Origin: an uncultured Methanoregulaceae archaeon
GTDB lineage: Archaea; Halobacteriota; Methanomicrobia; Methanomicrobiales; Methanospirillaceae
Assembly (NCBI GenBank): GCA_963818425.1
Contig: CAWFSA010000004.1
Span: 188,016-252,015, forward strand
Direction: 5' to 3'
DNA: 64,000 nt
Shown: positions 59,853 through 63,091 of the stretch, one piece after another
Layout: the number at the start of each line of letters is the position of its first letter
How positions within the stretch are numbered: the stretch's first letter is position 1
Translations under genes and position numbers: made by a program
Notes under the pieces: model-generated
Told to the model about the DNA's origin: nothing
The model's input: the letters and a program-made list of their open reading frames with translations, nothing else
The model's database searches: none

Positions 59853-60092
59853 TTGAATCTTTATAATTTAAAAAAATCTATTATAAATTTAGTATTACAG
59901 CGAGAAAGCGTGGATTTGCTTACAACTGGAGCACAATTTATTGTATGGTCTCGTGATAATGGAACATCCTTCCTGAATTTCAATAATGAATCTGATCCTA
60001 ATGACCTGTTACCTGAAGGAGATGTGAAAAAGCAACTTTGGAAAATAAAATTCGACTCAATCAATCAAGGGATTATGGAAATGAATTTTTAA
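59853..60092 (+). CDS. Hypothetical small protein in the AT-rich island
   Basis: 79-aa ORF in sequence of about 33% GC, with no homology anchor. Confidence 0.25.
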   Translation: MNLYNLKKSIINLVLQRESVDLLTTGAQFIVWSRDNGTSFLNFNNESDPNDLLPEGDVKKQLWKIKFDSINQGIMEMNF

Positions 60093-60208
60093 TATATCTG
60101 GTGAACATTTCAGAAAATATTTCGTTGATTACTTAAAATAGGGAAATGTGAATCATTTGGTTTTTTCTTTTTATAACAGTCTCATGCAAATAATGCAGGT
60201 GGATAATA

Positions 60209-61180
60209 ATGGATGAAATGGGCTTATCACCAGGATCTGTTCAATCCATAATTGATTCAAAAAAAGCAGTTGAGCGATACCAGCATAGATTGGACTATTG
60301 TTATGCATATTTGTCGGAAAACAACTTCCCCGATAAGCATTTTCAACAGCAAATTGAACCTGAATTAGTTTCTATATTGAAAAAAAATGGGAAATCTAAA
60401 AAATGTATTCAGAAAGAAATCCGCGAAACAAATCGGAGGTGGGGTTTTTTAGCCCTAACAAAATCCCAGTTTTTAATTCGTCTAAATCATTTGATACCTG
60501 AGGAATTGGACAGCGCCAAGTGGGTGAATACGTATTGTCATGATGTTCCGTTTGGTTGCGTGACGAAAGATGCTACCGATAAATTGACTCCTGAACAAAT
60601 TCAACGGTGGTCAGATGGAAACCTTCTCATGTATCATAAAAACAGTTCGTACATCAATCTTACTGGTGTATTGTTATCCGAAAATTTTTTTGTAATTGAA
60701 ACGTTATGTAGAACAATATTATTTGGGAGTTGTCTTGAATTCGCACTTAAATCACTAGATGAAAAGACAACCGTTCAACACAAGGAAATTTATCAATCAT
60801 TAAAAAGAATGGGTGATGCAAATAGTGATAAAATTATTTGTAAACTATGTTCTTTTAACAAGCGCTGTAAAAAATGTGCAGATTTTTTAATTTTAGCCCA
60901 AGTTTATGAATTATTCTATCATTTACGGGTAATTAAGGATTATAAGATGGAATTTTGGGATATGGAACTATTCTCCCCGTTATTCAGTCAAAAGAATTTG
61001 GAATACATGTTTAACATCGTAATAAAGGTTCAACAAATTGACACTCGAATTTATAACGGGTATTGGCGATCCCCTTTCCATCTCTATAAGGATAATCAAA
61101 GAATTGATACACTTATTCAAGATTTCGATAGATGGCGTTCTTCGAAAAGTAAAAGAGAGCGAATCGAACCATTGGTGTAA
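60209..61180 (+). CDS. Hypothetical protein in the AT-rich island, probably horizontally acquired
   Basis: 323-aa ORF with strongly AT-biased codon usage, unlike the rest of the window. No domain is recognised. Confidence 0.45.
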   Translation: MDEMGLSPGSVQSIIDSKKAVERYQHRLDYCYAYLSENNFPDKHFQQQIEPELVSILKKNGKSKKCIQKEIRETNRRWGFLALTKSQFLIRLNHLIPEELDSAKWVNTYCHDVPFGCVTKDATDKLTPEQIQRWSDGNLLMYHKNSSYINLTGVLLSENFFVIETLCRTILFGSCLEFALKSLDEKTTVQHKEIYQSLKRMGDANSDKIICKLCSFNKRCKKCADFLILAQVYELFYHLRVIKDYKMEFWDMELFSPLFSQKNLEYMFNIVIKVQQIDTRIYNGYWRSPFHLYKDNQRIDTLIQDFDRWRSSKSKRERIEPLV

Positions 61181-61238
61181 AAGTGTTGCTATGGCGATTT
61201 GGACTTGAAAATTAAAAAAAATATATATACTGATGTAT

Positions 61239-62420
61239 TTAAAAGTCAGTCATGATCCTGAACTGGTCGATCTCTTCGCGGTCGAGCTGCTCTAAGAACT
61301 CGTCCGCCGCATGCGACACATCCTTCGAAGCGGTGATCGCACGCCCAACGACAAGAATATCGGCACCGGCCTTCAGCGCATCCTTCACAACGTTGACGCG
61401 GATGCCGCCGGCAGTTGCGACAAGAAGCTTGCCGCCGGCTGCTTTCTTGAGCGCCGGGATGTCACCCCAGGCATGGGCGGTCTCCTCGACATCGATGGCA
61501 CGGTGGAGTTCCACGATGTCCGGCTTGACTTTTAAGTTCTGGATGATTTTTACCGGGTTCGCAACGTTCAGCATGTCGATGACGGAGTAAATGCCGACCT
61601 TCTTCGCCTCGATTATAGCCTTTTCAATGGTGGATGTGGGGGCAAGACCGGAGATGACGACTGCGTCAGCAGTTGCATCGGCTGCCATGCGGGCTTCGAG
61701 GTTGCCGGTGTCAAGGATCTTCAGGTCAGCGATGATGAACGCGTTGGGCTTGATCTTCCGGATATCGGAGAGGACGGAGAGGCCGAACTTCTTGACGAGC
61801 GGGGTTCCCGCCTCGATGATGAGGTGGTCGTTCTCCGGGAGTGCCGACAGGACTGAATTGAGCTTGTTCATGTCGACAATATCGCATGCCACCTGCAGGT
61901 ACGGCGGGTCCCAGAGGCGCTGCACCTTGAATCCCATGATCGCGTGGGCAGCCCGGTCTTTCTCCTTGAGAAGTGTCCTGGTGTCCGGGAATGATTCCAT
62001 GGCGCGGGTGATGGCAAGCTTGGTTGCACCGTAGTTGAAGCGGTAGAGCTTGTTGTAGTCCTTTGCATCCGGGTGGACAAAAGCGGAAACAAGGATAACC
62101 AGGCTCTCGGTGTCAGCAGTGCCAAACGCCCCTTCTTCGAGGCTGTCAGCAACGGCCTTTGCAACCGCTGCCTGCACGGGGCCGAACATCTCGTTGACCT
62201 GGTCAATATTCTTTAAGGTAACTTTCGGGATGACGAGCGTCACCGGCTTTGTCAGCAGGTTCGGGCGTACGACCGCGAGCAGCGGGGTATGCCCGACAGA
62301 CAACTGCGAGATCGCATTTGCAAACGCGGATCCAATGGGACCTTCCTTCTCTCCCATCAACAGATCGATGTGCGCCAGTTCTGCGCCTTCGCCAATAAGT
62401 GCTTCTCCAACTAAATACAT
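61239..62420 (-). CDS. fae-hps: Bifunctional formaldehyde-activating enzyme / 3-hexulose-6-phosphate synthase (Fae-Hps)
   Basis: The N-terminal Fae reads MYLVGEALIGEGAELAHIDLLMGEKEGPIGSAFANA. The C-terminal OMPDC-fold Hps reads …IIADLKILDTGNLEARMAADA…VGIYSVIDML…LVVGRAIT. Confidence 0.8.
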   Translation of the reverse strand: MYLVGEALIGEGAELAHIDLLMGEKEGPIGSAFANAISQLSVGHTPLLAVVRPNLLTKPVTLVIPKVTLKNIDQVNEMFGPVQAAVAKAVADSLEEGAFGTADTESLVILVSAFVHPDAKDYNKLYRFNYGATKLAITRAMESFPDTRTLLKEKDRAAHAIMGFKVQRLWDPPYLQVACDIVDMNKLNSVLSALPENDHLIIEAGTPLVKKFGLSVLSDIRKIKPNAFIIADLKILDTGNLEARMAADATADAVVISGLAPTSTIEKAIIEAKKVGIYSVIDMLNVANPVKIIQNLKVKPDIVELHRAIDVEETAHAWGDIPALKKAAGGKLLVATAGGIRVNVVKDALKAGADILVVGRAITASKDVSHAADEFLEQLDREEIDQFRIMTDF

Positions 62421-62600
62421 GGAACTCTCCGTATGTTGAGTACTATGTGCCCGTAATATATGATAAAGTTACTAAGGGCAGGAGGATCATCCCGGGGATG
62501 GGTTCATTACCCGGTTCTCCCGTGCAGGAAACCGGAGTATACAACGGATGCATGAAGAGCAGCACTGCCAAAAAACAACAAAAAAACTCTTAAGAAAACG

Positions 62601-62768
62601 TGGGGTTGGTGAGATTTGAACTCACGATCGACGGGTCTCTCCGACATGCATCAGTGCTCCAACGGGTCATCATCTTGTTTTCAGGAGACCCATTGTTCAT
62701 CATCTGCGAGCACAAAGAACGCAAAGACCGCTGGAGCCCGTCGCCATACCGGGCTAGGCCACAACCCC
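62601..62768 (-). tRNA. tRNA-Trp(CCA) with a 94-nt intron after position 37
   Basis: The rc reads GGGGTTG-TG-GCC…GGC-G-ACGGG-CTCCAG[intron]A-CCCGT-CGATC-GTGAG-TTCAAAT-CTCAC-CAACCCC-A. The acceptor, T-arm and anticodon stems all pair. The anticodon is CCA. CCA is not encoded at the 3' end. Confidence 0.75.
62637..62730 (-). ncRNA. Intron-encoded box C/D sRNA guiding 2'-O-methylation of pre-tRNA-Trp positions 34 and 39
   Basis: The intron carries C (AGATGATGA), D' (CTGA), C' (AGATGATGA) and D (CTGA). The guide upstream of D (TTGGAGCA) pairs with GCTCCA of the anticodon loop and places C34 at the 5th position. The guide upstream of D' (GGGTCTC) pairs with GAGACCC across the 3' splice junction and places nt 39 at the 5th position. 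Confidence 0.65.
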
Positions 62769-63091
62769 GTTCTTTAAGTCATCAGGACGGATTTTTTCCT
62801 GACTCAATAAAATCGCAGTGTATAAACTTAAGAGTTGTGCTGCTTGCGGCACCGCCGGAATGTGCCGGGCGGGAGGATGTGCCAACAGGTTATAAACACG
62901 TCCCTGATGGCGCAGATCCGGTTGTCTCTTCCTGAAAATGTGGCGTGGGATATCAGGGTGCACCAGACCGGAAAACCGGACTGCACCACACCACCGGGTT
63001 AAATCACTACCCATATATGATCCGGTTTCCCACCTTTTACCAATGATTGAGGGCAGTTATATATGCGGGACATCAGGGGTTCCCCTGCTGG

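Follow-up and report, generated by a model that had tools for sequence, protein, structure and literature searches.

The window analyzed here, a stretch of 64,000 nucleotides of DNA from a Methanoregula-like methanogen, contained a pre-tRNA-Trp(CCA) gene consisting of exon 1, a 94-nt intron, and exon 2 at 62601..62768 on the minus strand. With a probability of roughly 92%, the intron is a dual-guide box C/D sRNA that would methylate C34 and C39 before splicing. The anatomy of the locus, the registers of both guides, their conservation and covariation, and the capacity to form a bulge-helix-bulge were all read from the sequence. The coordinates given for this locus in the first-pass annotation held for all elements, and the strand, which had been left unstated there, was the minus strand.

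A search of the whole window with Rfam gave two matches only, a tRNA and the sRNA family sR3, the latter nested inside the former on the same strand. The tRNA model (RF00005) matched 62768..62601 (minus strand) with 49.6 bits and an insert of 98 nt in the anticodon loop. ARAGORN in intron mode (-i) called a tRNA-Trp(cca) with a 94-nt intron, and the spliced 74-mer formed the full cloverleaf of a tRNA-Trp(cca); in the default bacterial mode, no tRNA was found in the whole window by the same program. From Rfam, ARAGORN, and direct reading, exon 1 (62731..62768) comprised tRNA positions 1-37 with one extra D-loop base and carried the anticodon CCA (62734-62732). Exon 2 (62601..62636), assigned from Rfam and direct reading, comprised positions 38-73 with discriminator A and without an encoded CCA. 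The intron (62637..62730) lay at the canonical 37/38 site, in agreement with the earlier proposal of a 94-nt intron after position 37. Because AG ends both exon 1 and the intron, its boundary was ambiguous by at most 2 nt from sequence alone, and an identical spliced tRNA was obtained from three boundary placements (62730/62731, 62636/62637). A boundary that destroyed the boxes or the guides described below, on whose absence the earlier proposal depended, was not found; the alternative boundary of ARAGORN, 2 nt upstream of 37/38, was a shift within the AG/AG repeat that left the spliced tRNA identical and the boxes and guides unaffected. The predicted bulge-helix-bulge geometry favors the 37/38 placement over that of ARAGORN. 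A tRNA pseudogene was ruled out by the intact cloverleaf and by exons identical to those of relatives. Two open reading frames, one of 111 aa at 62600-62935 (plus strand) and one of 86 aa at 62754-63014 (minus strand), spanned the tRNA gene and its leader. A protein-coding reading of these frames was rejected on the basis of the conserved RNA gene, and the ORFs across the tRNA gene are probably spurious.

Within the intron, the sR3 model (RF01133) gave a match at 62649..62707 (minus strand) with 61.8 bits (gathering score, 41; E = 6.2e-13), and model positions 1-55 of 55 were covered. This covariance-model result bore out the first-pass annotation, in which canonical C, D', C', and D boxes had been recognized in the intron. 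All four boxes were read directly on the minus strand: box C (AUGAUGA) at 62697..62703, box D' (CUGA) at 62681..62684, box C' (AUGAUGA) at 62667..62673, and box D (CUGA) at 62651..62654. The 12-nt D' guide, ACAAUGGGUCUC, occupied 62685..62696, the 12-nt D guide, CCCGUUGGAGCA, occupied 62655..62666, and the spacer between D' and C' was 7 nt (62674-62680). The arrangement was that of an archaeal box C/D sRNA: a box C of the RUGAUGA form lay toward the 5' end and a box D (CUGA) toward the 3' end, D' and C' were located between them, and the C-D' and C'-D guide spacers were both exactly 12 nt, the expected length being approximately 12 nt. By direct reading, the stem adjoining boxes C and D was GCA/UGC, just 3 bp with a 1-nt offset; UGCA/UGCA or GUGCG/CGCAC was present at the same place in relatives, and the ends of the intron were joined by a longer imperfect helix in the minimum-free-energy (MFE) fold. 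As read from these elements, the intron is a predicted dual-guide box C/D sRNA of the sR3 family.

Both guides were complementary to the precursor that contains them. The D guide formed a duplex of 10 contiguous base pairs, including one G37.U wobble, with G31-G37 and intron bases 1-3 (62728..62737, minus strand), and the D' guide formed 9 contiguous base pairs with intron bases -3 to -1 and A38-U43 (62631..62639, minus strand). C34 (62734) and C39 (62635) each faced the fifth guide base upstream of box D and box D', respectively, and these are the bases predicted to be methylated. The same two pairings had been described previously, the D guide on the anticodon loop with C34 at the methylation position and the D' guide across the 3' exon junction with position 39 in that place, and both stood with respect to pair number, fifth-base register, and the covariation reported below. 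Because both duplexes contain intron bases, the mature tRNA could not serve as the substrate, which would have to be the precursor.

When random 12-mers of the composition of the intron were matched to the 168 nt in every register, 3.6% of trials for D and 10.7% for D' gave runs as long as those observed, and complementarity in any register was for this reason dropped as standalone evidence. In the required register, the chance values were 8e-5 for the D guide at C34 and 2.6e-4 for the D' guide at C39. It could be argued that the sRNA mainly guides methylation of RNAs other than its host, for instance rRNA or different tRNAs, and that the match to its host is incidental, since matches of 9-10 bp with G.U pairs allowed occurred at approximately 20-70 sites per guide in the 64-kb window and the D' guide of Methanobacteriales had no match to position 39. 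However, the guide positions covaried specifically with intron and exon bases of the host, and the guide register fell on the two documented sites, which leaves hardly any probability for this explanation. For the predicted pairing with the host, the sR3 covariance-model score and the comparative data settled the question against chance complementarity.

Reference genomes were scanned with a pattern in which CTCCA, TGGAG, and boxes C, C', and D all had to be present in register, and at least 120 tRNA-Trp introns of the same build, spanning five orders, were found in this sample of lineages with non-divergent boxes. The listed introns came from Methanoregulaceae and other Methanomicrobiales, Methanothrix, Archaeoglobales, Thermoplasmata/Aciduliprofundum, and Methanobacteriales, and no haloarchaeal locus was present among the matches listed by the pattern scan. 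A tRNA-Trp anticodon arm was followed by such an intron in every listed locus (at least 120). Introns of 61-134 nt were fully parsed in 119/120 listed loci, and the remaining locus (L084) ended at a contig end. The sR3 model matched 10/10 tested loci from Methanomicrobiales, Methanothrix, other Methanosarcinales-type archaea, Archaeoglobales, and Thermoplasmata, and each match overlapped the intron region of the pattern match; in the 7 tested loci in which the tRNA model also scored, sR3 was located inside the tRNA match in all. No sR3 match was obtained in two tested Methanobacteriales loci and in L035.

For the analysis of covariation, four 12-nt segments (D target, D' guide, D guide, and D' target) were cut in register, and counts were made over 56 distinct guide/target combinations. 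D-guide positions 2-11 were paired in 56/56 distinct combinations, a count in which the columns fixed by the pattern (CTCCA, TGGAG, and boxes C, C', and D), five per side, carry no independent weight. In the D duplex, 11, 7, and 4 cells at the three intron positions showed double changes, as did 3 cells at position 31. Double changes in the D' duplex numbered 28 cells, and positions 43-45 accounted for 25 of these. The overall number of double-change cells was 53 compared with 19.9 +/- 3.3 in shuffles, and 0/500 shuffles reached 53. Paired cells amounted to 77.8%, compared with 26-50% when the partners were slid by 1-3 columns. The comparison confirmed that both predicted guide-target duplexes, intron bases included, have been maintained through compensatory change in at least four orders. 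As the covariation at intron positions shows, pairing with the unspliced precursor is under selection.

These data also bear on whether the intron is an inactive relic that is just spliced out, with C34 and C39 either unmodified or methylated by protein-only enzymes. Deletion of the Haloferax intron had no effect on growth (PMC11408192, PMC7714728), as a relic would lead one to expect. On the other hand, all four boxes in the present intron were canonical, the sR3 score was well above the threshold, and compensatory changes had preserved the register of both guides in at least four orders, which points to ongoing selection on the pairing. We consider a relic very improbable and retain the reading of the intron as a functional guide for C34 and C39.

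Several lineage-specific features were observed in the same loci. The guide base opposite position 37 (62659 with 62731) was U in most lineages: guide position 8 formed a G37.U wobble in 45/56 combinations and a G-C pair in 8/56, and an A-U pair was found in three loci that have A37 (L099, L106, and L108; alignment A1 columns 8/35). The introns of Methanobacterium/Methanobrevibacter (L039, L041, L046, L052, L104, and L111) kept the D guide for C34, had a degenerate first box (UGAAGA), and scored below the sR3 gathering score; their D' guide was not complementary to position 39, a U in these tRNAs. These introns may guide C34 only, or their D' guide may have another target. Methanothrix-type introns (e.g., L003, L018, L036, and L093) reached 134 nt in length; between D' and C' they contained an additional G+C-rich hairpin (GGCCUCUCGACGGGGAGGCC), and a further one followed box D. 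In the Methanothrix-type loci an unrelated tRNA gene was located directly upstream, and in L018 there was an Rfam sR41 match approximately 500 nt away.

A canonical 3-4-3 bulge-helix-bulge (hBHBh') could be formed at the exon-intron junctions, with two 3-nt bulges and a 4-bp CUCC/GGAG Watson-Crick helix. Its 5' half (62730..62736, minus strand) consisted of the helix strand C32-C35 and a bulge of A36, G37, and C with the 5' splice site between G37 and C, and its 3' half (62636..62642, minus strand) consisted of the helix strand GGAG and a bulge of A, G, and A38 with the 3' splice site between G and A38. The splice sites were thus located after the second base of each bulge. The anticodon stem served as one flanking helix, and the outer helix beside the 5' bulge was weak (G-C, G.U, and U.G). 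Folding constrained to the bulge-helix-bulge gave -62.4 kcal/mol compared with -65.6 kcal/mol for the MFE fold, a cost of 3.2 kcal/mol. The geometry was conserved, and the central helix had four Watson-Crick pairs in 92/120 listed relatives. Because the strands and bulges of this motif are made up of the target bases of the guides, one molecule cannot hold the guide duplexes and adopt the splice-competent fold at the same time. The two guides could also pair with each other: the D' guide formed 9 bp with the end of box C' and the D guide (62695-62687 with 62668-62660, minus strand; CAAUGGGUC / GACCCGUUG), and this pairing was used in the MFE fold. A guide-guide duplex of at least 7 bp was possible in 99/119 relatives and was absent in Thermoplasmata and Methanobacteriales. 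Guide-guide interactions were reportedly linked to sequential methylation by Singh et al. in 2008. The guide-target, guide-guide, and bulge-helix-bulge pairings could together enforce an order of C34 methylation, C39 methylation, and splicing, so that the intron would act as a quality-control timer and not just as a guide, a speculation that we regard as doubtful. In the predicted folds, the competing alternative pairings are possible and widespread.

To our knowledge, L7Ae, Nop5, and fibrillarin are universal in archaea, and in the mechanism that we propose these proteins would bind the boxes on the unspliced transcript and carry out SAM-dependent 2'-O-methylation. The C/D-side guide would pair with G31-G37 and the first three intron bases, leading to 2'-O-methylation of the wobble base C34, and the C'/D'-side guide would pair with the last three intron bases and A38-U43, leading to 2'-O-methylation of C39. 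Methylation should come first. The precursor would then refold into the bulge-helix-bulge, and cleavage by the splicing endonuclease, ligation of the exons by RtcB, and circularization of the intron would follow. The binding of the proteins, the presence of the methyl groups, the sequence of steps, and circularization are suggested in this scheme by analogy with the literature on Haloferax, Pyrococcus, and Thermococcus (PMC7994747, PMC11408192, PMC7714728, PMC9014305).

The first-pass annotation had identified the locus with the cis-acting guide known from Haloferax and other Euryarchaeota. The identity stood, since sR3 scored above its threshold and lay inside the tRNA-Trp intron in every relative for which both were reported. 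The term cis-acting may not hold, as this mode of action is contested in reviews. In a strictly cis mode, the RNP assembled on a precursor would methylate only that molecule, its guides folding back onto their own anticodon arm. The guides and targets are indeed on one transcript, 45-60 nt apart, and cis action was the original proposal (Clouet d'Orval 2001 and Bortolin 2003, as cited in PMC7994747 and PMC11408192); for the pre-tRNA-Trp of Pyrococcus abyssi, it was reported in vitro by Bortolin 2003, as cited in PMC7994747. However, nothing in the sequence requires cis action, and later in vitro work by Singh et al. 2004, as cited in PMC7994747 and PMC11408192, provided evidence for trans action, with the methylating RNP supplied by another precursor or by the excised intron. 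In addition, circular tRNA-Trp introns accumulate in H. volcanii and T. kodakarensis (PMC7714728, PMC9014305), and a trans-acting pool would therefore be available. A strictly cis mode seems to us unlikely, and following the published in vitro work we lean toward an RNP that acts in trans, from another pre-tRNA or from the excised intron.

On the 3' side of the tRNA gene, a T-rich tract (T4, T7, and T6) was read directly at 62570..62598 (minus strand) and may be an archaeal terminator; CGTTTTCT was conserved in Methanoregula relatives. Upstream of the tRNA, a promoter-like motif, CTCTTAAGTTTATA, was located at 62821..62834 (minus strand), with a putative function suggested by the presence of the same motif class upstream of tRNA-Trp in other Methanomicrobiales. 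In most Methanomicrobiales the motif was CTTAAGT, ATTAAAT, or CTTATAC and preceded the 5' end of tRNA-Trp by approximately 29-38 nt. For Methanoregulaceae this distance was approximately 30 nt greater, and the gap contained a conserved block, GCGATTTTATTGAGTCAG, and after it a hairpin with a stem that differed in sequence among species. The leader region of the window (62769-62840, minus strand) was compared with those of L025, L080, L004, L053, L090, L091, L068, L086, L088, L114, L042, L054, L057, L105, L055, L092, and L060. In single-sequence folds, the hairpin was at the same place in most of 14 relatives, with modest z-scores of 0.3 to -2.5. RNAalifold gave no consensus structure for the upstream leader of the 14 relatives because the hairpin lengths differed and MAFFT misaligned them. 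The conserved block and the hairpin suggest a lineage-specific structured 5' leader in Methanoregulaceae, which might add a further layer to an ordered pathway.

The gene downstream of the tRNA on the same strand (61239-62420, minus strand) encoded a Fae-Hps fusion with Pfam Fae and OMPdecase/HUMPS domains, and a divergent gene for an AMP-binding enzyme began upstream near 63043 (plus strand) and ran off the window. The flanking genes had 88-90% DNA identity to Methanoregula assemblies, which assigns the window to Methanoregula or a close relative, and the neighborhood of Fae-Hps and tRNA-Trp recurred across Methanomicrobiales. The G+C content was 0.42 at 60001-62000 compared with approximately 0.54 elsewhere, and an ORF of 323 aa in this stretch (60209-61180, plus strand) had no Pfam match. 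The low-G+C stretch beside the Fae-Hps gene may be of foreign origin or may be evolving rapidly.

The locus should be annotated as a tRNA-Trp(CCA) gene with a 94-nt intron encoding an sR3-family box C/D sRNA, and the overlapping ORFs should be dropped. Bacterial-mode tRNA finders miss this gene, and beyond its correct annotation the locus is of little importance. As a modest addition, the compensatory change in duplexes that include intron bases confirmed, at the level of sequence comparison, the unspliced precursor as the selected substrate.

The locus is an already known system, described in 2001, in one more methanogen, and its differences from the Haloferax prototype are minor. The euryarchaeal pre-tRNA-Trp guide was described by Clouet d'Orval et al. 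2001, Singh et al. 2004, and Joardar et al. 2008, as cited in PMC7994747, PMC11408192, and PMC7714728. Haloferax tRNA-Trp carries Cm34 and Um39, and both are lost on deletion of the intron (PMC7994747, PMC11408192, PMC7714728, PMC9014305); under standard conditions, neither the intron nor either methylation is required (PMC11408192). [quoted passage not shown] As in published descriptions of the Haloferax guide, both duplexes span exon-intron junctions and the bulge-helix-bulge overlaps the targets. Unlike Haloferax, which has U39 and Um39, the present tRNA has C39, with Cm39 as the predicted product, and the intron is 94 nt compared with approximately 103-105 nt in Haloferax. The consensus of the sR3 family (RF01133) likewise carries both guides, and the present intron differs from it in no respect other than a D'-C' spacer that is 4 nt longer. 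The predicted 2'-O-methylation of the first anticodon base by a C/D RNA is shared with sR50 in the pre-tRNA-Trp intron of Pyrococcus and with the guides for tRNA-Leu and tRNA-Met (PMC7994747). However, the position-34 guides for tRNA-Leu and tRNA-Met are free-standing and act in trans (PMC7994747), whereas the guide described here lies inside its own substrate. Eukaryotic intron-encoded box C/D snoRNAs are similar in that a guide housed in an intron is released by processing of the host transcript; they reside in spliceosomal pre-mRNA introns and target other RNAs, whereas the present guide would reside in a protein-spliced tRNA intron and target its host.
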